From the sequence record MH383160: 64,000 bases of DNA. One strand, given 5' to 3'. The DNA is from Escherichia phage UB. Shown here piece by piece: positions 1 through 64,000 of this stretch; the first letter of the stretch is position 1, and each line of letters opens with the position of its first letter. Position numbers and translations under genes: made by a program. The notes under the pieces were generated by a model. The model was not told where the DNA came from. It was given only the letters and a program-made list of their open reading frames with translations, and did no database searches.

Positions 1-52
1 ATTCATAAATTGTGTATGCCATCATCTATTCTCTCTTATAATATTAGTACTT

Positions 53-646
53 TTAATATTTTAAAACATCAAACTCTTCGCTTACGCTTGTTACATTATC
101 ACTAACAATTTTAAAAATTGATTTGATACGTTCGTGTAGTGGTTTTTTAGATTCGTTCTCAACTTCAATATATGCTTGCATTGCTGCAATTGCATGATAT
201 GTCCCACTACCTACTGCGGTAATTCTTGTTTTAGGTTGTAGTACTGAAAAGTCTTCTTGAACTTCATAGATTGTATGATTGTGGAGAATGATAAATTGTC
301 CACCACCTACATCTTGTGATGCATCTCGTGCACCCCATTCTTCTTTAAACATTTGACGAATAATTGGAATAACTTTAAGAACCAAATATTGTGAAAATGT
401 TTGACTAGCATCTTGTTCAGGTAAATTAAGGTTATAATTTAACAACTGACCCATACGAAATGATGTAGTATAACCCAATGCCATTACTTCTTTAGTTCTA
501 GTTAGTCCATCATCATGTAACTTGATAAATTCTTTCTCGAATACCTTTGGCTCAGTTTGAACAGTTTTTGTAAATCCATTGCTTCCTAACTTATCCCCAG
601 CAATAAAAGAACTTACTCCGTCAGTGTGTGCAATAATACAGGTCAT
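53..646 (-). CDS. HslV-like / proteasome beta-like Ntn-hydrolase peptidase
   Basis: Track ORF 53..715; internal ATG at about 646 gives N-terminus M-TCIIAHTDGVSSFIAGD with Thr directly after Met (N-terminal nucleophile position); ITAVGSGTYHAIAAMQAY resembles the HslV GSGG-x-A-x-AA segment; ATG overlaps stop of upstream ORF (ATGA). Confidence 0.65.
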   Translation of the reverse strand: MTCIIAHTDGVSSFIAGDKLGSNGFTKTVQTEPKVFEKEFIKLHDDGLTRTKEVMALGYTTSFRMGQLLNYNLNLPEQDASQTFSQYLVLKVIPIIRQMFKEEWGARDASQDVGGGQFIILHNHTIYEVQEDFSVLQPKTRITAVGSGTYHAIAAMQAYIEVENESKKPLHERIKSIFKIVSDNVTSVSEEFDVLKY

Positions 647-903
647 AAAATAGCTCCAATTGCAAATAATGTTGTGTATAAGATATAAATTAGTGCTCCT
701 AACAACATTAGGCACACCAAGTATGAAGTTGATAGTACATAATAAATTATTGCTTCGAATTTTGAATTGAACTTCATTGTAGTTGGATCAATAAAGCCAT
801 TACGATAATCTTTGTAAATGAAAACTGTTAGAAAAAGTACTGTAGCATACATTACTACAGTAGCATAAAAAATAATAGATGTCAAGTTTTGGATGTTTGT
901 CAT
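643..903 (-). CDS. small membrane protein, two predicted TM helices
   Basis: 86 aa ORF; two long hydrophobic stretches (SIIFYATVVMYATVLFLTVFIY and LVCLMLLGALIYILYTTLFAIGAIL); stop overlaps start of downstream peptidase gene. Confidence 0.5.
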   Translation of the reverse strand: MTNIQNLTSIIFYATVVMYATVLFLTVFIYKDYRNGFIDPTTMKFNSKFEAIIYYVLSTSYLVCLMLLGALIYILYTTLFAIGAIL

Positions 904-973
904 AGTTATATAATCTCAATATAATTAATAACAAAGGAAGTACATCATAATCATCCTGTTATTTTAATTATTT

Positions 974-1597
974 TTATTGTTTGACTGAACCGTAAAAAAC
1001 CAGTTCTGGTTTTGTTAATATTACAACATCTTCACCACGAGAACGACTAACTCTAAATAGAACTTCTGGTGGGATTCCATTTGCTGCATATAGTGAAAAA
1101 AGGAAACCTACCTTTGTTGCCATTTCTTCGGTAAAAGTTGATAGCTGTCTTACAGACACAAATGAATTATCACCATCAGTAACATTACTTTTAATCGAAA
1201 TGTTATGAAGACCCAGTACTGAGCGATTTGTCATATATCGCTTTTCGGGAGATACACTAAAGAATACCACAGTACATGCTGAGTTGCAATACCTAGAAAC
1301 AATTAAATTTATACCATTGTCTCTAACGAAGTTTGCCATTTTAATCCCAGCATCAAAATCACCACCAGGAGATGTAATTGTGATGGTATCATAGTGTTCT
1401 TTATCATACAACTCTATCATACGCTTGAGTGACCCATCTGTAATATCTGATATGAAATATACATTTCGGGTTTCAGGATTATACTTTATCACATTTTTAC
1501 TTTCAATACCAGCACTAGCTGGAAAATTTATTAACAATAGAAACATTGCTGCTTGTACCACTTCAAGCCATAGTCTTTTCATATAACAAGTCCTCAA
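974..1597 (-). CDS. secreted ClpP-fold serine protease-like protein
   Basis: N-terminal signal-peptide-like segment (LLLINFPASAG); TITITSPGGDFDAG resembles ClpP/SppA SPGG motif; candidate Ser in CNSACT and His in GLHN. Confidence 0.55.
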   Translation of the reverse strand: MRTCYMKRLWLEVVQAAMFLLLINFPASAGIESKNVIKYNPETRNVYFISDITDGSLKRMIELYDKEHYDTITITSPGGDFDAGIKMANFVRDNGINLIVSRYCNSACTVVFFSVSPEKRYMTNRSVLGLHNISIKSNVTDGDNSFVSVRQLSTFTEEMATKVGFLFSLYAANGIPPEVLFRVSRSRGEDVVILTKPELVFYGSVKQ

Positions 1598-1808
1598 TTT
1601 TGTTTAGGAAGATATAAATAATATAGTACTTAAACACTTAAGTCAAACTTTTTCTGTACTTAACTCAAATTTTTAAAAATAAAACTTAAGGTGTACAGTT
1701 TATAACAGATCATATCATACCACTGATGTTTTGTCAACTAGTTCATGGTGCATCTGATGTAAAAAAACAAATATATTTCATACTTATATTTAAAAAAGGA
1801 AATAAAAT

Positions 1809-2186
1809 ATGAAAGCTATCGCAGCACAAGGTAAACTACCATTCAATATCGGCGGGTTTTGTGTAACCGCAGCTAATATAAACGGTGAATTGAAATATAA
1901 CTTGAACATCTTTAATCAACGTTCTAGTTGTGTTTACGATCTCATTGATACTGATTTTAATGTTTATCGTTTTGTAACTATCACTAGTTATGATAAAGAT
2001 AAAATTAGATTAGATGCATCTAAAACAGCATTGGAAATTGCACCAACTCTAGCCAAAAACACTTTTTGTATTAAGATTGACGATAGTGCATTTGCCGAAT
2101 CATTCCAGTTTCATAAAATTAAATTGAGTACTGGTGCGATGAAATATCACCCTTGGGATTTGTATTATTGTAACCTCCCTGGTTAA
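1809..2186 (+). CDS. hypothetical protein (only convincing plus-strand gene)
   Basis: 125 aa ORF in a gap between minus-strand genes; aagga RBS-like sequence about 8 nt upstream of ATG; followed immediately by a strong hairpin terminator. Confidence 0.5.
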   Translation: MKAIAAQGKLPFNIGGFCVTAANINGELKYNLNIFNQRSSCVYDLIDTDFNVYRFVTITSYDKDKIRLDASKTALEIAPTLAKNTFCIKIDDSAFAESFQFHKIKLSTGAMKYHPWDLYYCNLPG

Positions 2187-2218
2187 CAAAAAAGGAGCCA
2201 TACGGCTCCTTTTTTTTA
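2187..2218. terminator. bidirectional rho-independent terminator
   Basis: A-run, GGAGCC-ATAC-GGCTCC perfect 6-bp stem hairpin, then T8 run; sits between convergent genes 1809..2186(+) and 2216..2473(-). Confidence 0.7.
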
Positions 2219-6423: not shown

Positions 6424-7215
6424 TTAAATTTCAAATACAAATTTAGGATTGTAATCAAAATTCTCACAAGCTCCACTGTATGATTCATAGCCTCGTGGAT
6501 TACAAATGATACGTGTCTTACCAATGTGGTAGTCAAAGCTACTATGAACATGACCATGAATCCAAACATCAGCACCCAAATCTTCAATGTACTGATCCAT
6601 ATCGGAACAGTAACAACCATTCAGTGAATCATTTTTATATTTTGGTGAAACACTTTGATAACTTGGTGCGTGATGGGTAACCACGATGACCTTGAAATCA
6701 TTATCATGCATAAAGCGAACTGTGTCAATAGAATTTTTGATAAATTGTTTATCTTTGTGATGCATAAACTCAGTATCATCTGGTGTCAGTTTCTTACGCC
6801 AAGGCTCTGATGTTGTTCCATGACGGATATGTTTGTAATCGTTCATCTTCTGACGAGCATCAAACTTCGTCAAAGAATTACCTTTATCGAAGTCTGTCCA
6901 CAGAGTACTACCAACAAGCAGTACTCCATCCAGCCATACAAATTTGTTTTGCAAAAAGATGAAATTTGGAATCTCATCTTGTATATCGGACAGTACTTGG
7001 TGCGTCTTGTGAATGTTTGAACCGTAATATTCATGGTTACCTGGAACCAGTACTACATTCTTAAACTGCTTACACAGGGATTCAATGCCAGTACGATAAC
7101 GACTACGTTTAACTTCATCAAAATCCCCAGCAATAATCAGTACTGTATCACTGTAATCACCACTATGGAGGTAATCAGTACCACCGTGTACGTCAGACGT
7201 TACAACAAATTTCAT
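6424..7215 (-). CDS. calcineurin-like metallophosphoesterase
   Basis: Metallophosphatase signature blocks: SDVHGG (D-x-H), GDFD, GNHE, VTHHAP, GHVH. Confidence 0.75.
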   Translation of the reverse strand: MKFVVTSDVHGGTDYLHSGDYSDTVLIIAGDFDEVKRSRYRTGIESLCKQFKNVVLVPGNHEYYGSNIHKTHQVLSDIQDEIPNFIFLQNKFVWLDGVLLVGSTLWTDFDKGNSLTKFDARQKMNDYKHIRHGTTSEPWRKKLTPDDTEFMHHKDKQFIKNSIDTVRFMHDNDFKVIVVTHHAPSYQSVSPKYKNDSLNGCYCSDMDQYIEDLGADVWIHGHVHSSFDYHIGKTRIICNPRGYESYSGACENFDYNPKFVFEI

Positions 7216-7234
7216 AATTACCTCCTATAAGTGT

Positions 7235-8653
7235 TTAGCCAAGTGATTCAATGATACTGTTTGAGAACACCTCAACAGCACTATCACGAATTTCTAAAAT
7301 ACGAGTATAGTCGTCACAAGTGTTTTTGTCAAATCTAAATTCAATAAACACTGGTAAGAACAGTGATGGCTCACCAGTACGCTTGTCGAATACAATGTCA
7401 TTACACTCAACTGTAACCACTTTACCAATAAGTTCTTGCATTCTTTCCCAAATGGTTTTAAAGGTCCATTCAGCATCTTTCTCTTTGATACCAGTACCCA
7501 CATTAACTTTCAATGAACCACAAGCACTTTCCAGTTGTAAAGAACCTAGGCTTCCTTTACGTTTACCTTCACCTTCATTGAAACCAACAATACGCAAGTC
7601 TAGTTGCATTTTCAATTTCATTTTCAACTGCTTCGGAGAAGTGTGAGATTTCCAGATACCATCTTCACATTTCAGTACTGAACCCTCTTCACCTTCGTTC
7701 ATTAGTTCACTATTGTACTCAAATGCTTCTTTGATGTTTAGAACTTTACGGAATCTAACCATACGAACAAAATCACTATTGAGTTCGTTAATTGCATCTA
7801 CTAAGATCTCGCGACGTTCTTTACGTTTTACATCCCATACACCTTCACAAAATGCATCATATGGAACAACATCCCATAGAACGAATACAGTACGCATTGC
7901 TTCATTCTGACTGATGCTATCTTTACCAGCTTTCTGAATTATACCGTTGCCAGTAGTGCGTGGGAGAATGGTTTCTCCATCATTGTCCAGTACTACACCT
8001 TCCCCCATAAAGACCACACCACTACTAAAACGTTCATCTTTACTTTGGATGATGTGAGCAAGACCTGCCATCTCACCATCACGACAACCCAGGAAGTCGT
8101 ATAGTTTACCATTACGGGATGTAGAAGTTAATGAACCATTAATGACAACGTGGTTCAAGTACTGACCATCCATTTTCACTTCTGATATAGCGTAACCATA
8201 ATCTTTGAAGTTGATGTTCTTTGCAGTCTTTTTGTCAATCAAAGAACAACGCATATATGGTTCGTCTTTAATAAAGCCTTTACCAAATACATCATTGCAG
8301 TTCTTTTCTTGAATACCACAATCAAGGTTTTTAGTAAGCATTTTACGGAGAACTTCCTGATCATCTTCAGATACAGAACCCAGTACTGAAGCAATGAAAT
8401 CACGCCCCGCATTTCCTGTCACATCACGCTTGTAAATGCATTCTAGCTTATCAATTGCTTCATCTAACGTCATATGTTGATATACGTCATCAGCGGCAGG
8501 GAGCTTCTTATAGCCACTAACGATAGAAGGGTCTAGAGTATATTTCAGTACTTTTTGTAAAGTTACATTATCTTTATTTTGTTCAAGAATAGCTTTTTTG
8601 CCTAGTGTACTGCTAGTATTTTTAATGCTTTCAAGAATTGCTAAAATGCTCAT
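7235..8653 (-). CDS. 30: ATP-dependent DNA ligase (T4 gene 30-like)
   Basis: Nucleotidyltransferase motif I K-x-D-G (EVKMDGQYL); N-terminal region MSILAILESIK..STLGKKAILEQNKDN closely parallels T4 DNA ligase N-terminus as recalled; 472 aa. Confidence 0.9.
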   Translation of the reverse strand: MSILAILESIKNTSSTLGKKAILEQNKDNVTLQKVLKYTLDPSIVSGYKKLPAADDVYQHMTLDEAIDKLECIYKRDVTGNAGRDFIASVLGSVSEDDQEVLRKMLTKNLDCGIQEKNCNDVFGKGFIKDEPYMRCSLIDKKTAKNINFKDYGYAISEVKMDGQYLNHVVINGSLTSTSRNGKLYDFLGCRDGEMAGLAHIIQSKDERFSSGVVFMGEGVVLDNDGETILPRTTGNGIIQKAGKDSISQNEAMRTVFVLWDVVPYDAFCEGVWDVKRKERREILVDAINELNSDFVRMVRFRKVLNIKEAFEYNSELMNEGEEGSVLKCEDGIWKSHTSPKQLKMKLKMQLDLRIVGFNEGEGKRKGSLGSLQLESACGSLKVNVGTGIKEKDAEWTFKTIWERMQELIGKVVTVECNDIVFDKRTGEPSLFLPVFIEFRFDKNTCDDYTRILEIRDSAVEVFSNSIIESLG

Positions 8654-8664
8654 TGTATATTCCT

Positions 8665-9867
8665 TTATAGATAATACTTTCCAATATAAAGTGGATTACT
8701 AATTGATAGTTGAACGTGACACGGCTTATCTTGGTAGTAACGAGAACTTGATGTTTTGCGTTCATTTGGTGGGAAGAATGGGGAACGATAGCCATTCCAT
8801 GTACTAAATGATGAGTGTTCATTAATATCAACATCCATTACCATAATCCCATTATCATCAATTTGAACTGGATATGCACTAAAGCGTTCAAATTTATCAT
8901 TATAATGGATATTATAATCTCCACTACGCCCATAATAACTACGCGTTGTATTATTACTTACACCAAAAAATACGCGATATGTTTGTTCATTATCTTTAGT
9001 CATAAATGGTACGTTCTCGTTGAAACGTCCATTATTCATAAGATCATCAACATTTATTTCTTCATATTTAATTTTTAGGTCTTTTGCTTTAAATGATTTA
9101 TTGTGTACCAGTACTGGAATGTTAGATTCACCTAATGGGTTATGTCTGTTTGTTCTATAGCTTTGCCAAAATTCATTAGCAAGTTTAATTTCTTCATCTG
9201 CCGTAGTCTTCTTATTCAAGAGTGCACGAGGTTCAAGATTGTAATTATCCAAACGTTGATTCAATGCATAAGTTCCACGAGTACTGTTAAAAAGTAAATG
9301 ATAAACTGAACTTTTGTCTGGATATGCAAATTCTTTAGTTTTCTTTATACAAATTGCATGTACTTTACCGCAGTAATAGTAATCTTCTTTAAGATAAGTG
9401 AAACCATCACCAACTTTAAGACCTGCTACAGTTTCTTTTTGTTGTTCTTTTTTATTTTCTTTTTCAACTAACTTAGCAAACGTTTTTGTTTTACCATTAA
9501 TTAATTCTAAGTTATTGTTGAAAAACATTGGGTCTACAAAAACACCTTTGATTATATCGTTATTGATAATTAAATCATTCATGTTTTTTGCACTAATCAT
9601 AAATTCAAATCCTTCTGGGTGACGGATCGTGAAATATGTTTCTCGTGCATGAGTTGTTAATTTATCAACTACACAAAATCCCGTAGTTGGAACGTTGTCA
9701 ATATATAACGATGGAAGATTGTTCTTCTTTGCCCAGTACTCTGCTCTCTCTTTCTTTGTTTCAAACGCTTTTGTATGTGATTTTGTTGCATCGATAATAA
9801 AACCATCAACTTGGTTGTGGTTTACATAGGAACGTGCAACAAATAACTTCTCTGGAAAATCCATCAA
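8665..9867 (-). CDS. hypothetical protein
   Basis: 400 aa minus-strand ORF directly downstream of ligase; no motif recognised. Confidence 0.55.
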   Translation of the reverse strand: MMDFPEKLFVARSYVNHNQVDGFIIDATKSHTKAFETKKERAEYWAKKNNLPSLYIDNVPTTGFCVVDKLTTHARETYFTIRHPEGFEFMISAKNMNDLIINNDIIKGVFVDPMFFNNNLELINGKTKTFAKLVEKENKKEQQKETVAGLKVGDGFTYLKEDYYYCGKVHAICIKKTKEFAYPDKSSVYHLLFNSTRGTYALNQRLDNYNLEPRALLNKKTTADEEIKLANEFWQSYRTNRHNPLGESNIPVLVHNKSFKAKDLKIKYEEINVDDLMNNGRFNENVPFMTKDNEQTYRVFFGVSNNTTRSYYGRSGDYNIHYNDKFERFSAYPVQIDDNGIMVMDVDINEHSSFSTWNGYRSPFFPPNERKTSSSRYYQDKPCHVQLSISNPLYIGKYYL

Positions 9868-10501: not shown

Positions 10502-10511
10502 TTCTATTTCC

Positions 10512-10781: not shown

Positions 10782-10786
10782 AATTA

Positions 10787-11999: not shown

Positions 12000-12001
12000 A
12001 A

Positions 12002-53512: not shown

Positions 53513-53564
53513 GATAACAGCTTTGGTCTTCTATGTCAATACCAAAACGAAAAAAGCCCATATC

Positions 53565-54391: not shown

Positions 54392-54944
54392 AACTCAATA
54401 CCTCCATTAAACACTCATACACACCGTCAATCGCATAAGCACAAAAATTGAAATTAATTTTGTGATTCTTGTGTAATGGACTATTGTGTACTGTACTCAT
54501 TATGACATTATAAAATAACAAACGCACTGGTACAAGCATTGAACCTTGGAAAAATTCTTCCTCTGATTTATATGTATTGTACTCTATTGCGTTGTTCGTT
54601 TCTTTATCATATGTTACCATTACTAACGGGGCATTTTTATTATACCATGCGTACTCTAAATCATTCTTTCCAATAACAGAACCAGGTGCGAAATCCAAAA
54701 GACCAATAACACTACGGGCATTTGGTATATCTGGTGTATTGAATCGTTTATCAAAATGACTCGTGCACGCAATATATGTATTGTACTTCGATGGAATAAT
54801 ACCAATACATTTGTGGAAATGACGCTTGTGATATTTCTGGGCATTATATAAGGCTGCAACAATACAAGCTAACTTTTGTCCCATAAGGATGGCATTAGCG
54901 TAGGTGTACTGAATTTCATTGCTGGTATGGTACTTCGAGGTCAT
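54378..54944 (-). CDS. family A protein
   Basis: 188 aa; EEEFFQGSMLV. Confidence 0.55.
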   Translation of the reverse strand: MTSKYHTSNEIQYTYANAILMGQKLACIVAALYNAQKYHKRHFHKCIGIIPSKYNTYIACTSHFDKRFNTPDIPNARSVIGLLDFAPGSVIGKNDLEYAWYNKNAPLVMVTYDKETNNAIEYNTYKSEEEFFQGSMLVPVRLLFYNVIMSTVHNSPLHKNHKINFNFCAYAIDGVYECLMEVLSYEAE

Positions 54945-55227
54945 AATATTTCCTTTGCCATATCATGGGCTTAAAATCAATAACAGCTTTCTGTATCTTT
55001 TTTAATAATAAGACATCATAACCACCCGTGTCAATCACTAATTGCTGTTGGAACAATTCTTCATCGGATAATGTATTGAAATCTACAAAATAATCTGTAA
55101 CTATCGAATCATTTAAATGTGCCATGTACCAACCTGAACTTCTTGAATAAATCAAATTCCACCCATCGTCATCATCTTCTAATTCAACATAAATCATATC
55201 TGGGGTATACATCATTTTATACTTCAT
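54916..55227 (-). CDS. family A protein
   Basis: 103 aa; DEELFQQQLVI. Confidence 0.55.
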   Translation of the reverse strand: MKYKMMYTPDMIYVELEDDDDGWNLIYSRSSGWYMAHLNDSIVTDYFVDFNTLSDEELFQQQLVIDTGGYDVLLLKKIQKAVIDFKPMIWQRKYYDLEVPYQQ

Positions 55228-55765
55228 AACTATATCCTTGCATTAATAAATCATAAACTACATGGACTAAATTTAATTGAATATAAAATTTTAAACCTTT
55301 AATTAATGAATTCAAATGCATTGTACTGAATAACATTAGATACATCATCTCATGCGGTTTTGTGATTAATGATTTTTGAAATACTTCAGCTTCATCATAA
55401 GGGTCTATGAACTGAAATTTGTCTTCATCATAATTTGTATTGGAATGCTGATATATAAAATAATCATCATTGGTATTGTACCACAAATATCCTTCGAATC
55501 CTGTACTAACATCTTTGGTCAATGGGGATGCTGATACTGGATTTGAACTGATTAATGCACCTACATCAACAATCCCCGTTGTATCATATTCGATTTCAAC
55601 ATCAATATCAATGTATTTCCTTGCGATATCTGCGTTTATGGACAAATATAAACTACCACCTGTCCTCTGACTCAGGATTCCATCTATCTGCGATATAGGA
55701 TGGTTGTTATTGAGGATAAGCATTATTGTACTTATCTTGTGTGCTAATAACTCTATCTCATTCAT
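55217..55765 (-). CDS. family A protein
   Basis: 182 aa; EAEVFQKSLIT. Confidence 0.55.
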   Translation of the reverse strand: MNEIELLAHKISTIMLILNNNHPISQIDGILSQRTGGSLYLSINADIARKYIDIDVEIEYDTTGIVDVGALISSNPVSASPLTKDVSTGFEGYLWYNTNDDYFIYQHSNTNYDEDKFQFIDPYDEAEVFQKSLITKPHEMMYLMLFSTMHLNSLIKGLKFYIQLNLVHVVYDLLMQGYSYEV

Positions 55766-55965
55766 AATTTACCTATCGATGGATACCTAGGATTTGTAGG
55801 ATGTAAAATCCTGTCCTGTACTGAAAGGTGCTCAAATGTAATTAAACTCAAATAATAATCGTAATTATCAATACCACCCTTCAAATGTATATTGTAATAC
55901 ATCTTAATACTATCTAATAATGAATCCTGTAATGCATTTAATGTTATCGTATTAATCTTTTGCAT
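55762..55965 (-). CDS. hypothetical small protein
   Basis: 67 aa ORF. Confidence 0.35.
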   Translation of the reverse strand: MQKINTITLNALQDSLLDSIKMYYNIHLKGGIDNYDYYLSLITFEHLSVQDRILHPTNPRYPSIGKL

Positions 55966-56171
55966 TAATGTTCTTCTCTTAAAAATCGTTTGATAGCATA
56001 ATCTAAATAAAATTCATAACACATGCTATCTCTGTTCTTTATCCATATTTTGTAATCGGATTTTATATTACTCAACAAATAATTTGTATTAATTGTGTAA
56101 TAATCCAAACGACCTAATCGTGCCATTTGATAGGATACTCCGTTCCATTTATTGTATAAGATATAATCCAT
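55965..56171 (-). CDS. hypothetical small protein
   Basis: 68 aa ORF. Confidence 0.35.
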   Translation of the reverse strand: MDYILYNKWNGVSYQMARLGRLDYYTINTNYLLSNIKSDYKIWIKNRDSMCYEFYLDYAIKRFLREEH

Positions 56172-56524
56172 CCGTAATGAATAGGACTATTCTTTTCTCC
56201 TTTAGGAATAAAATATAAAGATGTACTGGGGTTATAACTGAATAAATCGTTGTTACCAAATGTAAAATGCGATAACTCAATTTTCCTTGTACCTGTACTT
56301 GGACGAAGAGCATTCTTAACACCGAAGACTGTACCTTGATATTTCTCGGAAAATTCAAACAATACATCTGTAATTAAATCACGAAACTCCGCATGTATGG
56401 TTTCAAAAAAATCTATATTACACGATGTTTTAATATCCTTGAACTCATTATAAAAAGCATGTCTTGTATTCAAAAGAAATATTACTTTTTTAAGATCCTG
56501 AACTATTTCTGGATTCATATTCAT
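56114..56524 (-). CDS. hypothetical protein
   Basis: 136 aa ORF. Confidence 0.45.
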   Translation of the reverse strand: MNMNPEIVQDLKKVIFLLNTRHAFYNEFKDIKTSCNIDFFETIHAEFRDLITDVLFEFSEKYQGTVFGVKNALRPSTGTRKIELSHFTFGNNDLFSYNPSTSLYFIPKGEKNSPIHYGWIISYTINGTEYPIKWHD

Positions 56525-56756
56525 TTATCTCATTCTGTAACTTAAGCATCAAAATTTGCATATTAATTTTTTGTAAAAGGTGCTTGATAAATTTCTGTGC
56601 CATTTCTTCTTGTTCTTTTGTACCAAGATAAAATAACAGATTAAATTCTGATAATCGCAAAGAAAAATCTTCATCACCACCCTTTAAACAAAAATCCCTG
56701 TACTTTGTAGCGTACAAATATTGGTTTACCTTTTTATAATACCCTGTGTTTTGCAT
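56490..56756 (-). CDS. family B small protein (outlier copy)
   Basis: 88 aa; FYLGTKEQEEMAQKFIKHL. Confidence 0.45.
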   Translation of the reverse strand: MQNTGYYKKVNQYLYATKYRDFCLKGGDEDFSLRLSEFNLLFYLGTKEQEEMAQKFIKHLLQKINMQILMLKLQNEINEYESRNSSGS

Positions 56757-56944
56757 ACTATCTCCGTTCGCAACGAATTTATATAATAATGAACAAATTG
56801 TTCTTGTGAACGTGTTCCAAGAAAAATAAACATATCAAACTCTGTTGTTTTTAAATTCAATGCATCTTTTGTAAAATTCCTGTTGAATTCCCTGTACTTT
56901 TGGGTCTTCCATTCTTGATTAATTGTCTTGTATATCGATTTCAA
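56726..56944 (-). CDS. family B small protein (outlier copy)
   Basis: 72 aa; IFLGTRSQEQFVHYYINSL. Confidence 0.45.
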   Translation of the reverse strand: MKSIYKTINQEWKTQKYREFNRNFTKDALNLKTTEFDMFIFLGTRSQEQFVHYYINSLRTEIVCKTQGIIKR

Positions 56945-57239
56945 TGATTCTCCCTGACATACCTTGTATTAGCTTATCATACATATCGAGCATCACTTTT
57001 TGAATATTAATTAGTACTGGCATCGTGCAAATATCAATGTCGTATACTAAGCTGTACTGGAATAATTCATCTTCCTGCATTTGTACTAAATTAGGTAAAA
57101 GATAATTGTCTGCCTCTTCATCCTGGTACTTGAAATGCATAACACCATCCTTTTTGTACAAAAGAATGTCAATATCACCTAACTCTTCTGCATAACCAAA
57201 AATACATATACTCGATGTTTTTGCTATATTAAATTTCAT
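56919..57239 (-). CDS. family A protein
   Basis: 106 aa; EDELFQYSLVY. Confidence 0.55.
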   Translation of the reverse strand: MKFNIAKTSSICIFGYAEELGDIDILLYKKDGVMHFKYQDEEADNYLLPNLVQMQEDELFQYSLVYDIDICTMPVLINIQKVMLDMYDKLIQGMSGRIIEIDIQDN

Positions 57240-58045
57240 GATTTATATTGTTCCTTAAAAACACCACAATGATAATTTTTATTGTATTGTGTAATACTAT
57301 AATCACACGGCATTGTCCCGCACGAAGCTCTGTGTTTTAAACGTTCCAATACCTTATCGTAATCTTTACTGAAAATGCCATTTTCATTGGGCGTAGCAAT
57401 CATTAATGCTTGCTCATATAAATCTTTTGTTCTTGTTGAACCATGCGAATGTTTGTTAAAATAAAATACATATTCAACTTCCCAATTACTTCTTAAATAG
57501 GATATTCCGTAATTGATAATCATATAATAATGTAAATCCTTGTAATAATTGAATGTCTTATCTGTATTAATCAAAATATATGAAGAACTATCATTGTCCT
57601 TAATAACAAATAAACGACCAATCTTATTTTCTTTATCTTTAACTAATTGTCTAATTTCATCACCTTCTTCAAATTTACGATGCACTTCAATTACAGATTT
57701 AGCAATCCCAGTCTGTACTAAAGATTCATATGTTGCGTACATAAAATCACTTACATGACCTAAACCAACATCTTCTTTTCTTGGTGTCTCTGTTGTATTG
57801 ACAAACATATTCAATAACTTTTGAATTGAAAAATCAGTACTGCAATCTTTATTAATTTTAATTTTTTCTCGAATCTCTTCCTTTAATGCATTAATATATT
57901 GCTCTTGTGCTGCTTCCTGATAATTTGTACCAAGATATAAACTCAAGGCAACTGAACCTTTGTAAGATGCTGATTTCTTTAAATCACCAGAACTAAATTT
58001 TTTCATAATCAAATTGGTTGCTTCAGATTCTGTTAAAAATTTCAT
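57236..58045 (-). CDS. family B module fused to a larger C-terminal domain
   Basis: 269 aa; N-terminal about 75 aa carries LSLYLGTNYQEAAQEQYINALKEEI; followed by about 190 aa unrelated region. Confidence 0.55.
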   Translation of the reverse strand: MKFLTESEATNLIMKKFSSGDLKKSASYKGSVALSLYLGTNYQEAAQEQYINALKEEIREKIKINKDCSTDFSIQKLLNMFVNTTETPRKEDVGLGHVSDFMYATYESLVQTGIAKSVIEVHRKFEEGDEIRQLVKDKENKIGRLFVIKDNDSSSYILINTDKTFNYYKDLHYYMIINYGISYLRSNWEVEYVFYFNKHSHGSTRTKDLYEQALMIATPNENGIFSKDYDKVLERLKHRASCGTMPCDYSITQYNKNYHCGVFKEQYKS

Positions 58046-58153
58046 ATCATTGTACCTTATCTTAAAATTGAATAGGTAAACATGTTAACACTATTCAAAT
58101 GGAGTGTCAACATTGATCTTCATTCTGTGAATATTAAATTTCATATTATTCTC

Positions 58154-58486
58154 TTATATATTGAATTCACATACGTGTTGAACAAAATTCTTTGGAAGAT
58201 GACAATGTGCAATCATCTGCTGTTGCACTTTCTTCATATCTTCTAATGTAAAACCTAAAGAATCATCGTGTACTAACATGTACTGAAACTCTTCTTCTTC
58301 AGAGATAGAACATAAATTCGGTACTGAAATTGTTTTTGTTTTTCTTGCACCTAATTTCCAATGAAAAGAATTATTGCATTTTCTGTACTCAAATATCTTC
58401 AACCCAGCACCTCTATTAAAATCAGCTACTACAATGTAACATGAATTCTTACGTACAATACAATTAAATTTACGCATTATCTCCAC
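58154..58486 (-). CDS. family A protein
   Basis: 110 aa; EEEEFQYMLVH. Confidence 0.55.
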   Translation of the reverse strand: MEIMRKFNCIVRKNSCYIVVADFNRGAGLKIFEYRKCNNSFHWKLGARKTKTISVPNLCSISEEEEFQYMLVHDDSLGFTLEDMKKVQQQMIAHCHLPKNFVQHVCEFNI

Positions 58487-58722
58487 CTCTCTCCGTCATC
58501 GCAAGAGTACTGGTACGTTGTCGTTAGGGTAGGGACCATGTTGGTAATGGGCATATTATTAACAATAACCGTAACAGGCATAAGAATCGTCTCTACTCTA
58601 CTCTGTCCTGTCCTTGTGCAATTCATCTTTTGCATTTCATCTGAATCCATGAAATACAATACAAATGGTGCAATCCCAAGAACAATACACAAGACGATAA
58701 GGAAATTTAAAAAATTTAACAT
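58477..58722 (-). CDS. small membrane protein
   Basis: 81 aa with N-terminal hydrophobic helix (FLNFLIVLCIVLGIAPFVLYF). Confidence 0.4.
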   Translation of the reverse strand: MLNFLNFLIVLCIVLGIAPFVLYFMDSDEMQKMNCTRTGQSRVETILMPVTVIVNNMPITNMVPTLTTTYQYSCDDGERWR

Positions 58723-58781
58723 AATTTTTACCCTATGATTAACGTTAGTGTACTATATCAGTAATGAAAAGTACTGTCAAG

Positions 58782-59177
58782 CTAGTACTGCACTGTTCTA
58801 ATGAAAGTACCTTTACTCATGGATTTAAGCTTATGAACCTCTTCCTGCATACCCTTAATTAACCCTAAAGGTATAGGTAAATCATGTACTAAGCTGTACT
58901 GAAAGTATTCTTCTTCAGATAAAGTACTAACATCTGGGACTCCAATTTTAGTTAGATAATCTTGATGTGTTGACCAATAAATTATATCTTCAGTACTATT
59001 GTACTCCCCATATACTGAACAATATTGATGAATATCTTTCCTGTACCCTTGAGCAATAAAGAACTTATCTACTGCATTACCAGCATTAATAGAATTCACT
59101 TCTATTGTCACAGTACTTGAGCTTGTATAACTCTTAATATTATCAGTACTCAATAATGTGTTCTTCATAATCACCAT
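58782..59177 (-). CDS. family A protein
   Basis: 131 aa; LSEEEYFQYSLVH. Confidence 0.55.
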   Translation of the reverse strand: MVIMKNTLLSTDNIKSYTSSSTVTIEVNSINAGNAVDKFFIAQGYRKDIHQYCSVYGEYNSTEDIIYWSTHQDYLTKIGVPDVSTLSEEEYFQYSLVHDLPIPLGLIKGMQEEVHKLKSMSKGTFIRTVQY

Positions 59178-59487
59178 TAGGCTCCTGTTTAGATTCTTTC
59201 ATTAGTACTATCATCTTATGTACTAATGGCATAGGAAACTCTAAATCCCATACTAATGATTCCTGAAAGTATTCTTCTTCAGATAAAGTACTTAAATCTT
59301 TAATATCAACGTGCTTGTATATTTTATTTTCGTAATTAACAAATGATATATATAAATCACTAACATAAGAATCATAGGTAATTGTGAATGGCTTACCCTT
59401 GTAATCCATTACATCTCTACATAGACTACTTTTGATATATGTATGTTCAAATGATTTATATACCTTGAGTTGTATATTAGTTTTCAT
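59143..59487 (-). CDS. family A protein
   Basis: 114 aa; LSEEEYFQESLVW. Confidence 0.55.
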   Translation of the reverse strand: MKTNIQLKVYKSFEHTYIKSSLCRDVMDYKGKPFTITYDSYVSDLYISFVNYENKIYKHVDIKDLSTLSEEEYFQESLVWDLEFPMPLVHKMIVLMKESKQEPNGDYEEHIIEY

Positions 59488-59752
59488 ATTTCTCTTTATT
59501 AGCTTGTTTTGTTTTATGGTGAATTAAATCTATTAATGTAATCAAGTACAACGTCAAATAGTACTCTTGTTGATCTGTACCTAATGATACAAAGAACTTG
59601 TGCTCATAGATTAAAACCTGTTTCTCTTCAAATGGACATTTAATCCTCTGTATAGGCTTAAGTAAATGATAGTACTTATTAAATCTATGATACATTTCTA
59701 GTTCTGTCAGTACTTTCATATTAAACACGTACTCCATTAGCAGTAGCATCAC
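59477..59752 (-). CDS. family B small protein
   Basis: 91 aa; VSLGTDQQEYYL. Confidence 0.5.
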   Translation of the reverse strand: MMLLLMEYVFNMKVLTELEMYHRFNKYYHLLKPIQRIKCPFEEKQVLIYEHKFFVSLGTDQQEYYLTLYLITLIDLIHHKTKQANKEKYEN

Positions 59753-59942
59753 GTAAAGCTGTCAAATACTTCTGTACTGCTTGCTCTTGTTTATTTGTAC
59801 CTAAAAGTATATACATCCATAATTCACTGTAATGTACATCTTCTGTATAAGGGTTGTTGTAACTTTTTGATAATATAGCATCAAATTCAGATGCATGAAC
59901 CCTTGTGAACTTAAGAATATCTTGTTGTGTTATGATTCTCAT
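59721..59942 (-). CDS. family B small protein
   Basis: 73 aa; ILLGTNKQEQAV. Confidence 0.5.
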   Translation of the reverse strand: MRIITQQDILKFTRVHASEFDAILSKSYNNPYTEDVHYSELWMYILLGTNKQEQAVQKYLTALRDATANGVRV

Positions 59943-60154
59943 ATCTTTTCCTGTACAATCTGTATAAGAATACCTATGTGTGAATTAACAGTTCTCTCTT
60001 GATGCTGTGTTCCTAAGAGTGTCAGTACTATCATATCTGAACGCAAAAGATTTTTTTCAAGTTCACTTATATCAGTTCTTGAATCAAGTGCCATATATTT
60101 GTGATTATTCTTCCTGAATAGTGCCAAGTACTCTTGATTTGATATTTCCTTCAT
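59939..60154 (-). CDS. family B small protein
   Basis: 71 aa; LTLLGTQHQERTV. Confidence 0.5.
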   Translation of the reverse strand: MKEISNQEYLALFRKNNHKYMALDSRTDISELEKNLLRSDMIVLTLLGTQHQERTVNSHIGILIQIVQEKI

Positions 60155-60372
60155 AGTTTATTCCTGATGCCATTTAAAAGTGCTCTAATATGCTCATTGA
60201 CAAATCGCTCTTGGGAATCTGTTCCTAGAGTGAGTAGCAATCTTAAATCTGAACTTTTGATGTGATATTCTAAATCATTATTTGATTCTTGCATCAGTTT
60301 CTTAAAGGATGAGAAGTTTGCAGCCATTAGTTCAATGTATTCTGCTGTTCCTAGTGGTTTGTGTGTTGACAT
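60151..60372 (-). CDS. family B small protein
   Basis: 73 aa; LLTLGTDSQERFV. Confidence 0.5.
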   Translation of the reverse strand: MSTHKPLGTAEYIELMAANFSSFKKLMQESNNDLEYHIKSSDLRLLLTLGTDSQERFVNEHIRALLNGIRNKL

Positions 60373-60584
60373 TTGAGTTGTATTACCCTTTTGAGTGTAT
60401 TAATGTAATTATACACATTGGCTTCTTGATAGTTTGTTCCTAGAGTAGCTTGAACATAGATTTCATTTAACTTAATAATTTTATCAGTATCTGGTAGTTT
60501 TGATGTGTTAATGGCAAATAACTTCAAAAACAGTCCATTTAAGATTGTTAGGTATTCTTCGTCGGTAATGATTCGCATTTGCAT
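60351..60584 (-). CDS. family B small protein
   Basis: 77 aa; ATLGTNYQEANV. Confidence 0.5.
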   Translation of the reverse strand: MQMRIITDEEYLTILNGLFLKLFAINTSKLPDTDKIIKLNEIYVQATLGTNYQEANVYNYINTLKRVIQLKCQHTNH

Positions 60585-60796
60585 TGGATAAACCTTTTTA
60601 GTTCTTTGATGTAATCATTAATATTGCATTCTTGGTAGTTAGTTCCCAGTGTAGCTTGAACATAGATTTCACTTACTAGAATACTTATTTCATCATCTGG
60701 TAATTTCATGCTTTTTGTTATAAACAACTTTAGAATTAAACTACTTAATAGTTGGTTGTATTCTGTGGGTGAAATGATTTTCATTTTCATTTGCAT
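60548..60796 (-). CDS. family B small protein
   Basis: 82 aa; ATLGTNYQECNI. Confidence 0.5.
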   Translation of the reverse strand: MQMKMKIISPTEYNQLLSSLILKLFITKSMKLPDDEISILVSEIYVQATLGTNYQECNINDYIKELKRFIQCKCESLPTKNT

Positions 60797-61002
60797 TTTC
60801 TCAGTACTGATTCTTTAAGTTCATTGATGTAGTCCTCAACGAATTGTTCTTGTAGGTTTGTTCCGAGATATAACAGTACTCTTAAATCTGCTCTAAGTAC
60901 TTCTTTGTCATCTTCATCTATATCAGACAGTGTTATGTTTAAGAATTTACTTGAATTCTCTACAAGTAATATTACTTCTTCACCTTCTCTTAAAATTTTC
61001 AT
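60787..61002 (-). CDS. family B small protein
   Basis: 71 aa; LYLGTNLQEQFV. Confidence 0.5.
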   Translation of the reverse strand: MKILREGEEVILLVENSSKFLNITLSDIDEDDKEVLRADLRVLLYLGTNLQEQFVEDYINELKESVLRKCK

Positions 61003-61208
61003 AATCTTAGTGCTTTCCTCGACAGTAGGTACAGGTAACGTTCAGTGCATTGTTCTTGATAGTTTGTTCCTAATAAATGAACTAAATGTTGTTCAGCTAT
61101 AGAAAGCTGCTTGTCTTCATAACAAGCGTATCGTTGTTTCCTATGGTATTCTTTATTGATAACATCAAGGATGATAACACCGTATTCGTCATCTGTCAAG
61201 TGTTTCAT
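60999..61208 (-). CDS. family B small protein
   Basis: 69 aa; HLLGTNYQEQCT. Confidence 0.5.
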   Translation of the reverse strand: MKHLTDDEYGVIILDVINKEYHRKQRYACYEDKQLSIAEQHLVHLLGTNYQEQCTERYLYLLSRKALRL

Positions 61209-61446
61209 GCTTTTTTCTTTTTCTTATATGTTTAGTTAAAAGGTATATTAGTTTTCTGATGTATTCTTCCTGATAGTTTGTTCCTAAGAGTGCAAGAAGT
61301 TTTGCTTCAACTAAAGCTAATTGACGTTCTTCGAATGTGTGTTCCAGTATGTACTTGGGGTTTGATTTTTTAGCGTAAGCACTATTAGTCTTCATTACAA
61401 TCTTATGATATTCATTAGCTGTTAGGATTTTTAAATACTTGATCAT
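61189..61446 (-). CDS. family B small protein
   Basis: 85 aa; ALLGTNYQEEYI. Confidence 0.5.
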   Translation of the reverse strand: MIKYLKILTANEYHKIVMKTNSAYAKKSNPKYILEHTFEERQLALVEAKLLALLGTNYQEEYIRKLIYLLTKHIRKRKKHETLDR

Positions 61447-61666
61447 GTATCTTTTCCTTTATAGAGAATTTAAGATATCGAAGCATACTTTCAATGTAAT
61501 ACTCTTGTCTGTCAGTGCCAAGAAAGTACATGAGTTGAATGTATAAAACTTCTGCACTCCTTTCCGCTGGAGACTTGTTTGTGTCGTTTGGAAGTTGATT
61601 TGTATGTTTTCTTGATTTAATTAGTCGTTCTTTTAACTCATCGTCTGTTAAGTATTTCATTTTCAT
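61415..61666 (-). CDS. family B small protein (PAERSAEVL subtype)
   Basis: 83 aa; PAERSAEVLYIQLMYFLGTDRQEYYI. Confidence 0.5.
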   Translation of the reverse strand: MKMKYLTDDELKERLIKSRKHTNQLPNDTNKSPAERSAEVLYIQLMYFLGTDRQEYYIESMLRYLKFSIKEKIHDQVFKNPNS

Positions 61667-61892
61667 TTACTTTTTCCTTAATAGTAATTTTAAGATATCT
61701 AATCATACGTGCAACATATTCCTCTTGTCTATCAGTTCCCAGAAGATATGGTAGTGATTGGAATAATACTTCTGCACTCCTTTCTGCTGGGGTTTGGTTT
61801 AGGTCAATTGGACGTTTATTGGTATATCTCTTGGCACGAACTAATCTCTCGACGTATTCATTATAGGTTAAGTATATCATTTCATTTTGCAT
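61638..61892 (-). CDS. family B small protein (PAERSAEVL subtype)
   Basis: 84 aa; PAERSAEVLFQSLPYLLGTDRQEEYV. Confidence 0.5.
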   Translation of the reverse strand: MQNEMIYLTYNEYVERLVRAKRYTNKRPIDLNQTPAERSAEVLFQSLPYLLGTDRQEEYVARMIRYLKITIKEKVNENEILNRR

Positions 61893-62118
61893 TTACTTTT
61901 TCCTTAATAGTAATTTTGAGATATTTAATTATACGTTCAATGTGATACTCTTGCCTATCAGTTCCAAGAAGGTATGGTAATCTTTGGAATAAAACTTCCG
62001 CACTCCTTTCTGCTGGGGTTTGATTTGTGTTGTGAGGAAGTTTATTTGTAAGTCTTTTGGATTTATCTAGTCTTTCTGTTAACTCATCATGTGTTAAGTA
62101 TATCATTTCATTTTGCAT
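61882..62118 (-). CDS. family B small protein (PAERSAEVL subtype)
   Basis: 78 aa; PAERSAEVLFQRLPYLLGTDRQEYHI; N-terminus MQNEMIYLT identical to neighbour. Confidence 0.5.
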   Translation of the reverse strand: MQNEMIYLTHDELTERLDKSKRLTNKLPHNTNQTPAERSAEVLFQRLPYLLGTDRQEYHIERIIKYLKITIKEKVNAK

Positions 62119-62345
62119 TTAATGTTCCTTACGTAAATTGTCTGGATTAAACAATCAATCCAAGTTTGAATATATTGGTTTTGATACTGTGTGCCTAAGA
62201 GACTCTGCATTTTAAACTCTGCTTCAAGTTCATATCTCTTTTCTATAGAAAAGCTCAAATGACCATATTCTTTATCGTATCTTCTCAGTGCTTCCCCAAT
62301 TCTATTAAATCTTTCTGCTAATCTGATGTTATTCACAATATTCAT
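62103..62345 (-). CDS. family B small protein
   Basis: 80 aa; SLLGTQYQNQYI. Confidence 0.5.
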   Translation of the reverse strand: MNIVNNIRLAERFNRIGEALRRYDKEYGHLSFSIEKRYELEAEFKMQSLLGTQYQNQYIQTWIDCLIQTIYVRNIKCKMK

Positions 62346-62632
62346 CGATCAGTATACCTCAGTGGTTGGGTCATTTGATAAAAGTACAGCTTACCTTTGA
62401 TTTCCAGTAGTAACTCCGCGATTAAGCGATTTACTTCTGTATCTTGATAGTTTGTTCCTAAGAATACACCCATCTTTAACTCACGCATCATAATCATTTT
62501 CTTACTGTGTTGGATTTCTGGGTTGTGATAAATTGTATTACGTTTGTGCGTAATTTTTGTCATACGCTCGGTATATTCATCTTTACTTAAATTGATCATT
62601 TGCATGTTAATTACCCTTACATTTATTTTCAA
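62342..62632 (-). CDS. family B small protein
   Basis: 96 aa; VFLGTNYQDTEV. Confidence 0.5.
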   Translation of the reverse strand: MKINVRVINMQMINLSKDEYTERMTKITHKRNTIYHNPEIQHSKKMIMMRELKMGVFLGTNYQDTEVNRLIAELLLEIKGKLYFYQMTQPLRYTDR

Positions 62633-62837
62633 TACTATTCATGAGTTCTATAAGATAGTTTTCTACCTTACCTTCCTGATAGTTAGTCCCTAGGAAGTTG
62701 CACAACACGGCTTCTATGATTTTGATTTTCCTGATATCAGGCTTCAATCTTTTGTTATTGAATATTTGAATCCTTATATCTCTGGATGCATTTAAACGTT
62801 TTTGATATTCATGGTAAGTTAAATGAATCATTTTCAT
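62607..62837 (-). CDS. family B small protein
   Basis: 76 aa; NFLGTNYQEGKV. Confidence 0.5.
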   Translation of the reverse strand: MKMIHLTYHEYQKRLNASRDIRIQIFNNKRLKPDIRKIKIIEAVLCNFLGTNYQEGKVENYLIELMNSIENKCKGN

Positions 62838-63052
62838 TTACGTTTAACCTCTCGCTGGAGGGCATCAATTAACATCAGTACAGCATTCTCTTGATAGTTT
62901 GTTCCTAAGACTGAAAGCATCTTTATCTCATTTACTAAAATCAACTTCTTTGAGGGTTCAATAATGTGACTATCATAAACGGCCTTACGTGCTGGATAAG
63001 TTTTCGCCAGTATAACATAAAATTCGTCTTTACTTAAATTAATCATTTGCAT
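62834..63052 (-). CDS. family B small protein
   Basis: 72 aa; SVLGTNYQENAV. Confidence 0.5.
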   Translation of the reverse strand: MQMINLSKDEFYVILAKTYPARKAVYDSHIIEPSKKLILVNEIKMLSVLGTNYQENAVLMLIDALQREVKRK

Positions 63053-63261
63053 TTACTTTTAACCTCTTTCTGTAGAGCGTCAATCCATAGATCTACATAC
63101 ATTTGTTGATAGTTTGTGCCTAAGAGTGCACCTACATAGAGTTCAGTTACTAGTGCGTGCTTAAGGTTAGCTTGGATGCTCTTATCGCTTGATATCATTC
63201 TCCTTCTGCTTCCACATGTTTTCAGGAGTCTGATGTATTCAAAGCCTTGTAAATTTCTCAT
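63043..63261 (-). CDS. family B small protein
   Basis: 72 aa; ALLGTNYQQMYV. Confidence 0.5.
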   Translation of the reverse strand: MRNLQGFEYIRLLKTCGSRRRMISSDKSIQANLKHALVTELYVGALLGTNYQQMYVDLWIDALQKEVKSKCK

Positions 63262-63473
63262 ATTTTGGATACCACCTTGTTACGTAAGGAACTTAATAAT
63301 ACGTCAGTGTAGATGTTTTGATAGTTTGTCCCTACGAATACACCCAACTTCATTTCAGCTATTATAACACATTTGTCCTCTTGTGCAATAGATTTGTTTA
63401 ACACAATACTATACACTTTTGATTTGATAGTTTGTAACCTCCAATGATACTGATACTCATTAAGGATTATCAT
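63258..63473 (-). CDS. family B small protein
   Basis: 71 aa; VFVGTNYQNIYT. Confidence 0.5.
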   Translation of the reverse strand: MIILNEYQYHWRLQTIKSKVYSIVLNKSIAQEDKCVIIAEMKLGVFVGTNYQNIYTDVLLSSLRNKVVSKI

Positions 63474-63708
63474 TCTCTTTCCTCCAGATTTCGGTTCTCA
63501 TGTGTTGGCAGTGTGCTTCGATGAACATATCTATTGATTTGGCAATTGCGTTTTTATCAGTGCCTGTCATCAGTACAAGCATCTCGGCCTCACAGTGAAG
63601 TAAACGCATGATATCATAGGGTAATATTTCAGATACAGTGTCATAGTGTTTCTGTGCCAGTGTCTGCAATAGTTTACAATACATTTTGTGATTTAGTCTT
63701 TGTCGCAT
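63460..63708 (-). CDS. family B-like small protein (divergent)
   Basis: 82 aa; LVLMTGTDKNAIAKSI. Confidence 0.4.
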   Translation of the reverse strand: MRQRLNHKMYCKLLQTLAQKHYDTVSEILPYDIMRLLHCEAEMLVLMTGTDKNAIAKSIDMFIEAHCQHMRTEIWRKENDNP

Positions 63709-63965
63709 TGTTTATTCCATTCTTTTTTGGCCTTGATGGTTTTATATTGGATTTGGTTTCTTAATGCTGATAAGTATCGTTGAATGAACAGATCTTGATA
63801 GTTTGTTCCAATGAATTTCATAAGATAAAGTTCACCGTTGATAACATCCACTTCAGGTGCACCATATAAGGCATTGTTTTTTCTAAGGGCATGGATTAAA
63901 GAGAATAGGGCAGTTTGATACTCAACTCCTGATAAAGTCTTCATGTTTTGTGAGCAAATAATCAT
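63693..63965 (-). CDS. family B small protein
   Basis: 90 aa; KFIGTNYQDLFIQRYL. Confidence 0.5.
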   Translation of the reverse strand: MIICSQNMKTLSGVEYQTALFSLIHALRKNNALYGAPEVDVINGELYLMKFIGTNYQDLFIQRYLSALRNQIQYKTIKAKKEWNKQCDKD

Positions 63966-64000
63966 CTAGTTTATCCTGTATAACATTCGTTAATTGTTCG

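Follow-up and report, generated by a model that had tools for sequence, protein, structure and literature searches.

Introduction

The closest described counterparts of the element studied here, the palindromic hexamer AGTACT in a 64,000-nucleotide stretch of the Escherichia phage UB genome (record MH383160, one strand; hereafter the window), are found in bacteria and in other phages. The uptake signal sequences (USS) of Haemophilus and the DNA uptake sequences (DUS) of Neisseria are bacterial, 9 to 12 bp long and non-palindromic, occur about once per kb and are tied to natural competence. The stoperators of Cluster A mycobacteriophages, which are the sites of the L5 gp71 repressor, are asymmetric 13-bp sequences of temperate phages, present in about 25 to 35 mostly intergenic copies per genome. 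Nucleoid-occlusion sites are read by SlmA in E. coli (SlmA binding sites, SBS) and by Noc in Bacillus (Noc binding sites, NBS); the SBS is a 12-mer, GTGAGTACTCAC, with tens of copies, and its central hexamer is AGTACT. Finally, the promoter-early stem-loop (PeSL) cassettes of T4-type phages are sigma70 early promoters that lie between small early open reading frames (ORFs) in plastic regions.

A further point of comparison is the restriction-site avoidance of phages. Such avoidance is strong in this same genome, which has no GCGC and none of many GC-rich palindromes, but AGTACT shows the opposite behavior, a 9- to 11-fold excess that selection maintains. Judged by its sequence, the window comes from a jumbo coliphage of the PBECO4/121Q type: positions 7000-12000 are 98-99% identical to JP4, phAPEC6 and PBECO4, Escherichia jumbo phages of the genus Asteriusvirus. 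Full-text literature searches and the CBB, phAPEC6, RaK2, Sharanji and fEgEco12 papers yielded nothing on an excess of AGTACT, on promoters bracketed by it or on the lack of GCGC. Here, we show that AGTACT is enriched by selection on the DNA itself. We tentatively propose that it is the dispersed site of a putative dimeric DNA-binding protein and would double as an operator of early promoters and a label of phage DNA, a reading that we consider plausible although short of probable.

Results

AGTACT is the dominant palindromic word of the window

An exact count gives 184 copies of AGTACT between positions 1 and 64,000 (the copy at 28338-28343 is representative), compared to 21.4 expected from base composition, 35 under an order-2 Markov model and 16.8 ± 4.4 (maximum 32) in 100 dinucleotide-preserving shuffles. 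A preliminary description of this DNA, based on counts made by eye, had called the word strongly over-represented and had put the compositional expectation at about 20 sites; the computed values bear out both. No other palindromic hexamer comes close to this enrichment (the second, ATGCAT, reaches 2.7-fold), and many GC-rich palindromic hexamers do not occur in the window at all. A maximal-order Markov model predicts 158.6 copies and nearly matches the count, because the words GTAC, GTACT and AGTAC from which it builds its expectation belong to the same signal; measured against maximal-order models themselves, these words reach z scores of 13 (507 copies), 12 and 9.5, respectively. The signal is nested, running from GTAC through GTACT and AGTAC to the hexamer and then to its flanks.

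These flanks are symmetric. C stands at position -1 of 81 of the 184 sites and G at position +6 of 77, which gives the extended form cAGTACTg. The corresponding octamer, CAGTACTG, accounts for 39 copies, where about 4.8 would be expected from 184 sites with background flanks. The symmetric C/G flanks indicate that the word is read in duplex DNA with two-fold symmetry. GTACTG, which the preliminary description held to be commoner than AGTACT, is in fact rarer (132 copies), although its observed/expected ratio is higher (14-fold). Among the individual sites listed there, 28338 and 28440 (28440-28445) were placed exactly and two others (45076-45081 and 45103-45108) match the pair put near 45080-45115, but those placed at 60003 and 60125 really lie at 60024-60029 and 60127-60132.

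The enrichment is independent of coding

Phase and intergenic counts were based on a crude gene call, which yielded 141 genes and a coding fraction of 92%. Coding regions contain 174 copies of AGTACT, whereas shuffling synonymous codons within genes gives 48.9 ± 6.3 and shuffling codon order gives 23.3 ± 4.4, so that the ratio of observed to expected sites stays clearly away from 1 once codon usage is controlled. All three codon phases are used (AGT-ACT 73, xAG-TAC-Txx 41 and xxA-GTA-CTx 57), and 11 further copies, or 2.2 per kb, lie outside the called genes, although some of these may sit inside real genes. The choice of codons is striking when considered by peptide context: 67 of 110 Ser-Thr dipeptides (61%) are spelled AGTACT where 17 would be expected, as are 35 of 78 compatible x-Tyr-x contexts (6.7 expected) and 49 of 107 x-Val-Leu contexts (9.1 expected). 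About half of the peptide contexts able to encode the word therefore do so. Ser-Thr, Val-Leu and Gln-Tyr dipeptides are themselves enriched 1.7- to 1.8-fold, indicating that the pressure reaches the protein sequence.

The dipeptide enrichment, together with the many paralog arrays of the window, could be taken to mean that AGTACT has no function and is a by-product of codon or dipeptide usage, of paralog expansion or of a mutation/repair bias of the very-short-patch type. We find this hardly credible. The excess survives both coding-aware shuffles and extends to every phase and to intergenic DNA, and synonymous positions inside the sites are conserved (see below), which rules out an origin in codon or dipeptide bias. 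Sites are present in enzymes such as DNA ligase too, in part at positions shared with the Mimasvirus phage CBB. A word generated by Vsr-like repair (CCWGG type) was rejected because its one-mismatch precursors are not depleted: 15 of the 18 one-mismatch neighbours of AGTACT occur at 0.95 to 1.9 times expectation and TGTACT at 4.5 times, the only ones below expectation being ACTACT (0.67), ATTACT (0.83) and AGTCCT (0.49). Thus, the suggestion that codon or dipeptide bias explains part of the excess applies to a minority of sites while the bulk survives, and the accompanying suspicion of a DNA-level role was well founded. AGTACT is selected at the DNA level and is no by-product of coding.

Sites are conserved and evenly spread

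Comparison with relatives supports selection on individual sites. In PBECO4, at 2.3% divergence, 160 of 165 sites are intact (97%), compared to 89.8% of hexamers of the same composition; in the Asteriusvirus phage Ecwhy_1, at 15% divergence, 67 of 86 are intact (78%) against a background of 50%. Among third positions of the codons AGT, ACT, TAC and GTA, to which the test was limited, synonymous changes affect 4 of 109 positions inside sites and 99 of 654 outside (Fisher p=4e-4), about four times fewer. At the much greater distance of CBB, for which 23 ortholog pairs with 26-70% identity between the proteins were compared, 9 of the 40 sites in the window recur at the identical codon and phase where chance predicts 0.21; the remainder have turned over with their density kept.

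The sites are also spread more evenly than chance allows. Outside two exempt zones described below, the mean spacing is about 300 bp and the coefficient of variation of the spacing is 0.77, as opposed to 0.99 for random placement; none of 2000 simulations was as low as the observed value. Of 97 genes, all but 11 have a site, compared to 24.6 expected without one (none of 5000 simulations was that low). Density peaks at about 6 per kb in the terminal repeat that carries the early promoters and is lowest, at 1.7-2 per kb, in the core structural and replication genes.

Enterobacterial RaK2-like phages share the trait, which coincides with the absence of GCGC

The complete 348-kb genome of PBECO4 contains 891 copies of AGTACT. 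Several of the comparison loci were analysed through pattern counts only. Stretches of CBB (153 in 41 kb and 178 in 30 kb), RaK2 of the genus Alcyoneusvirus (96 in 50 kb), Ecwhy_1 (180 in 48 kb), Yersinia phage fHe-Yen9-04 of the genus Eneladusvirus (111 in 50 kb) and Salmonella phage Munch (56 in 25 kb, 7.9 expected) are enriched 7- to 11-fold, so that each of the five RaK2-like lineages sampled from enterobacterial hosts shows the excess. The word is not enriched in Pseudomonas phage PA5oct (3 per 50 kb), in T4 (4 per 50 kb) or in a 50-kb sample of E. coli K-12 (3 copies), and Agrobacterium phage Atu_ph07 (1 per 25 kb) and Vibrio phage V07 (4 per 25 kb) are at chance level.

The host range of the enriched lineages, all of which infect Enterobacterales while the Pseudomonas, Agrobacterium and Vibrio relatives lack the trait, is what would be seen if an Enterobacterales host protein, for instance a factor of the nucleoid-occlusion type, bound the sites and were exploited by the phage. 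The AGTACT core of the SBS would also fit. However, in 114 kb pooled from the window and a further locus, there is no copy of GTGAGTACTCAC and there are two of GAGTACTC, and the flanks of the SlmA type are the least used of all (G at -1 in 15 of 184 sites, C at +6 in 26 of 184). T4 shares the host and yet is not enriched. A host reader is accordingly very unlikely, and the distribution remains compatible with a clade-specific phage protein as the reader of AGTACT.

The same lineages are marked by a second feature. GCGC is absent from the window, where about 43 copies would be expected, from the whole 348-kb PBECO4 genome and from the sampled parts of CBB, RaK2, Ecwhy_1, fHe-Yen9-04 and Munch, whereas PA5oct, T4, V07, Atu_ph07 and E. 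coli carry 37 to 342 copies per sampled stretch (about 7 per kb in the host). Across the sampled genomes the absence of GCGC and the enrichment of AGTACT co-occur perfectly. The absence of GCGC could reflect broad avoidance of restriction or a phage nuclease directed against GCGC. In the same 114-kb pool, GATC and CTAG reach about half of their expected counts and CCGG, GGCC and CGCG roughly a third of theirs. TAAATA, which forms the core of ATAAATA, the T4-like late promoter, is five-fold under-represented (63 versus 322).

Paired sites bracket early promoters

The positions of AGTACT relative to promoters are of particular interest. In the 22.5-kb terminal repeat of CBB (1-22456), the density is 6.4 per kb and the spacing of pairs has a sharp peak at 21-22 bp. 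These pairs sit between small early genes and bracket near-consensus sigma70 promoters, for example attatcaaaAGTACTtTGACAaaatggttagAGTACTtTATAATg, and Ecwhy_1 has the same architecture at 36000-48000 of the analysed locus (AGTACTaTTGACAtagtttgatAGTACTgTATAATa). Nineteen cassettes from CBB and Ecwhy_1 yield the consensus attatcAAaAGTACTTG...gAGTACTtTATAATg, in which two AGTACT copies, 20-22 bp apart, lie directly upstream of the -35 and -10 boxes; the hexamers are constant between the two genera while the spacers differ. By inspection of the sequence, two sigma70-like promoters were recognised in the window as well, both on the minus strand. The one at 1618-1646, upstream of the protease gene (TTGACT, 17-bp spacer, TATTAT), has AGTACT at 1625-1630, one base upstream of the -10 box, which is where the second site of the relatives' cassettes sits. 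The one at 58752-58789 (TTGACA, 17-bp spacer, TATAGT) has copies at 58784-58789 and 58770-58775 that flank or overlap the -35 box. The sigma70-like promoters in the text of the CBB supplement are of a different class, without AGTACT, and the cassette class is not among them. As a separate observation, the annotated rho-independent terminator Torf26 of CBB (10171-10208) has stem arms made of the AGTACT word (AGTACTGG...CCAGTACT).

The promoter-bracketing copies favour binding over nicking or modification. A perfect palindrome of 6-8 bp is the classic format of type II nucleases and dimeric cleavers, and AGTACT could be a cut, nick or cleavage site of a symmetric phage enzyme, such as an endonuclease or a T4-type topoisomerase II, with the resulting ends or nicks driving recombination-dependent replication, clamp loading or the unlinking of a 350-kb genome. 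The clade has T4-like recombination and topoisomerase genes, and even spacing would suit such a role. Cut sites, however, tend to be lost rather than gained. Cuts inside early promoters make little sense, packaging needs intact 370-kb molecules and no candidate nuclease was found, so that cleavage appears quite unlikely. The product of PBECO4 gp009 (8513-9937 of the locus), annotated as an HNH endonuclease and adjoining an ATPase gene, was considered as a sequence-reading nuclease and rejected: the RefSeq "HNH endonuclease" matches a DUF2201 metallopeptidase-like domain and a VWA domain and adjoins an AAA ATPase, and its annotation consequently looks wrong.

Alternatively, AGTACT may be the target of a phage DNA modification enzyme, the modified site being an epigenetic mark that could tell injected from replicated DNA or gate promoters. 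Sites in promoter spacers are where methylation could modulate the binding of RNA polymerase. The clade encodes Dam-family N6-adenine and C5-cytosine methyltransferases, and RaK2 DNA has been reported to be methylated (PMC3622015), although the reported 5-methylcytosine is in a CpG context, which AGTACT does not contain. The fEgEco12 paper found that the DNA of this phage was cut normally by ten common enzymes, which indicates that there is no gross hypermodification. In the window itself, the only candidate DNA "writer" is a Dam-family N6-adenine DNA methyltransferase at 25142-25663 (minus strand; PF05869, E=6e-32). It was rejected as a specific writer since it is generic, its homologs being spread over more than 1800 records of diverse phages, T1-like and Stx phages included; we found no specific link between it and AGTACT, and it has no solved structural relative. 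Moreover, methylation alone selects neither a 10-fold excess nor an even spacing, and a reader protein would still be needed. We regard modification as rather unlikely and retain a DNA-binding protein as the preferred reader of the paired promoter sites.

Two zones are exempt, and one carries an oriented variant

The preliminary description had found sites in every region that it sampled. Two regions are nevertheless devoid of them. Exempt zone 1 (49303-57012, genes on the minus strand) contains no AGTACT but carries 40 copies of AGTACA (variant form CAGTACAG, consensus cAGTACAg) on the coding strand, compared to 3.65 ± 2.1 in shuffles, and none on the opposite strand. The variant thus matches the enrichment that AGTACT has in the rest of the window. 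GTAC is still enriched three-fold there, and the next base on the coding strand is A in 60 of 68 cases. The flanks of AGTACA resemble those of the hexamer (C at -1 in 20 of 40, G at +6 in 15 of 40), the variant uses all three codon phases (21/23/14), and it is retained in 45 of 64 cases against a background of 50%, being conserved in both PBECO4 and Ecwhy_1. Outside the zone it is rare, being nearly confined to these 7.7 kb. Exempt zone 2 (60902-64000, minus strand) likewise has no AGTACT; GTAC is not enriched (6 copies in 3.1 kb) and there is no signal of the oriented variant in either direction. Between the zones, the interval 57013-60901 is rich in sites (19, or about 4.9 per kb). As shuffles of zone 1 predict only 0.9 AGTACT, the zeros denote a lack of enrichment and are no proof of avoidance; a "zero tolerance" of the word in the zones, which we also considered, is indemonstrable for the same reason.

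PBECO4 has both gaps, and so does Ecwhy_1, at about 79% identity in this region; none was found in the sampled parts of CBB. The segment with zone 1 (window 49001-57000) has DNA similarity only to Escherichia and Salmonella jumbo phages, that is, to phages of the Asteriusvirus type. In fEgEco12, whose termini are experimentally confirmed and whose repeat measures 20,993 bp, the zones map next to the inner end of the left repeat and outside it, and the AGTACT-dense early region is the repeat; mapping to this genome suggests that in the relatives zone 2 runs approximately as far as the inner edge of the terminal repeat. A location of the zones inside the repeat was discarded, as the termini of fEgEco12 and vB_Ec-M-J put zone 1 about 10-17 kb into the unique region. 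The Sharanji GenBank record begins at about window position 48930 whereas fEgEco12 and vB_Ec-M-J place the repeat boundary at about 65.9 kb, and the start of that record is probably arbitrary. Recent acquisition of foreign DNA is also an unlikely origin of the zones: both obey the GCGC ban of the clade, and so they are not recent imports from outside it. That GCGC-free zones still lack AGTACT further shows that the pressure is regional and not a genome-wide mutational bias.

The oriented variant raises the possibility that the word is read on one strand by a moving machine, for example as a preferred start site of the phage primase, as a Chi-like signal recognised by a helicase-nuclease or as a cue that guides a translocase, being palindromic over most of the genome for a two-way function and oriented where traffic is one-way. 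Even spacing and the presence of at least one site in nearly every gene would agree with this, as would an enriched, conserved, single-orientation variant with the same C/G flanks near the terminal repeat, and the clade is annotated as encoding a T4-type primase, helicases and recombination proteins. The bulk of the sites, being palindromic, are uninformative as to strand orientation; the zone 1 variant alone is 100% co-oriented. A moving machine leaves the fixed two copies at the -35 and -10 boxes of early promoters unexplained, and known phage primases read 3-5 bases and not 6-8. The near-confinement of the oriented variant to zone 1 and the lack of such a signal in either orientation in zone 2 also count against it. 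This explanation seems to us unlikely, though it deserves some weight, and a dimeric binding protein remains our preferred reader of AGTACT.

Gene content of the window

Every ORF of more than 150 amino acids (aa) in the window is on the minus strand, and no tRNA genes were found in it. The window is syntenic with PBECO4 across the genes for a protease, dCMP deaminase, DNA ligase, phosphatases, polynucleotide kinase, RNA ligase and the Dam-family methyltransferase. Beyond these enzyme genes there are long arrays of genes of 150-200 aa, with no function assigned, and then very small genes. The tandem 150-200 aa genes occupy window 29000-49500 (minus strand) and include one family of eight paralogs and another of four; Island-1 proteins gave weak cross-matches to shared PHROGs families. 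Screens of the island genes and of the conserved proteins of unassigned function against Pfam and PHROGs returned neither a function nor a DNA-binding domain. At 59721-63965 (minus strand) lies an array of tiny paralogs (about 70-95 aa, LGTNYQE motif), which form a BLASTP cluster with 19 members in the window, 17 of them here. Most members of this cluster (PHROG 4148, function unassigned) are very small tandem genes packed end to end, and the cluster also has members at 44034-44225 and 57236-58045. Of the 17 aligned members of the array, 15 have no AGTACT and 0-4 GTAC while two have 2-3 sites, and exempt zone 2 coincides with most of the array, whose genes for the most part have no GTAC at all.

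Discussion

The excess of AGTACT, its symmetry, its fixed position in early promoters and its restriction to one clade are most simply brought together by a clade-specific homodimeric protein that would recognise the word in double-stranded DNA. On paired promoter copies, such a dimer could act as a regulator bound to its operator and control early promoters, most plausibly by shutting them off. Elsewhere, at about one site per 300 bp and with at least one in nearly every gene, the same word may mark the genome. The mark would be 40-100 times denser on phage than on host DNA, and any silencing, organising or protecting activity that followed it would then be directed to the phage genome in preference to that of the host. 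In Asteriusvirus, two gene arrays adjoining the inner end of the left terminal repeat would escape the mark.

Several points weigh against this proposal. Pfam screens of 10 conserved window proteins of unassigned function and of several annotated nucleases and regulators yielded no binding protein. A repressor has no obvious need for about 900 intragenic sites, and a homodimer fails to explain the strictly strand-oriented variant of zone 1 (40 versus 0). Apart from the promoter pairs at 20-22 bp, the sites show no helical phasing. The promoter copies themselves could partly have been inherited with a duplicated cassette and not independently selected, and the lower density in core genes may simply mirror stronger constraint on their proteins.

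A broader speculation is that unmodified RaK2-like jumbo phages carry an identity code in their sequence, composed of dense, evenly spaced AGTACT (about 900 per genome and nearly absent from the host) and strictly forbidden GCGC, both read by dedicated phage proteins. This is possible but, in our judgement, doubtful. If true, it would let phage proteins tell phage from host DNA and control early promoters, and it would ensure that transcription, protection or destruction is aimed at the correct molecule. Such a code would be the functional counterpart of the hydroxymethyl-cytosine of T4, written in sequence instead of chemistry.

Whatever the reader may be, phages normally purge short palindromes, and here one has been driven by selection to about 10-fold excess. 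That selection is strong enough to dictate synonymous codons and even dipeptides over a 350-kb genome and in at least five viral lineages. The finding points to an unrecognised DNA-reading system in therapeutically relevant jumbo coliphages, in which more than 80% of genes have no known function, and it bears on the timing of early transcription, on a possible distinction of self from host DNA and on the absence of GCGC in phages that have neither hypermodified DNA nor a phage nucleus. It also has a practical side, since recoding, engineering or expressing the genes of these phages adds or removes sites that are under selection.

The pattern has features of each of the described systems without coinciding with any of them. 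Like USS and DUS, AGTACT is in genome-wide excess, lies within genes in all frames, is spaced more evenly than chance and shapes peptide composition, and the arms of the CBB terminator Torf26 recall the pairs that USS and DUS form at terminators. USS and DUS are self-recognition marks read by a protein, and the likeness of AGTACT to them is one of sequence pattern; unlike them, it is palindromic, occurs in a lytic phage and in promoters, and reaches 3-6 copies per kb. As with stoperators, copies occupy the operator position of early promoters (in 19 cassettes) and are found elsewhere as well, at about 3 per kb. The orientation of stoperators with transcription is matched only by the zone 1 variant (40 versus 0), and no candidate for a cognate repressor of the stoperator type emerged among the proteins screened. 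AGTACT further differs in its about 900 palindromic and mostly intragenic copies and in belonging to a virulent jumbo phage. With SBS and NBS it shares a palindromic form, a spread across the replicon that leaves out a defined region and, in the case of the SBS, the core hexamer, but the SBS flanks are absent or disfavoured here and the density of AGTACT is orders of magnitude higher. Finally, the repeated promoter cassettes between small early ORFs resemble PeSLs, although no palindromic hexamer that at the same time fills coding DNA is, to our knowledge, a defining feature of PeSLs.

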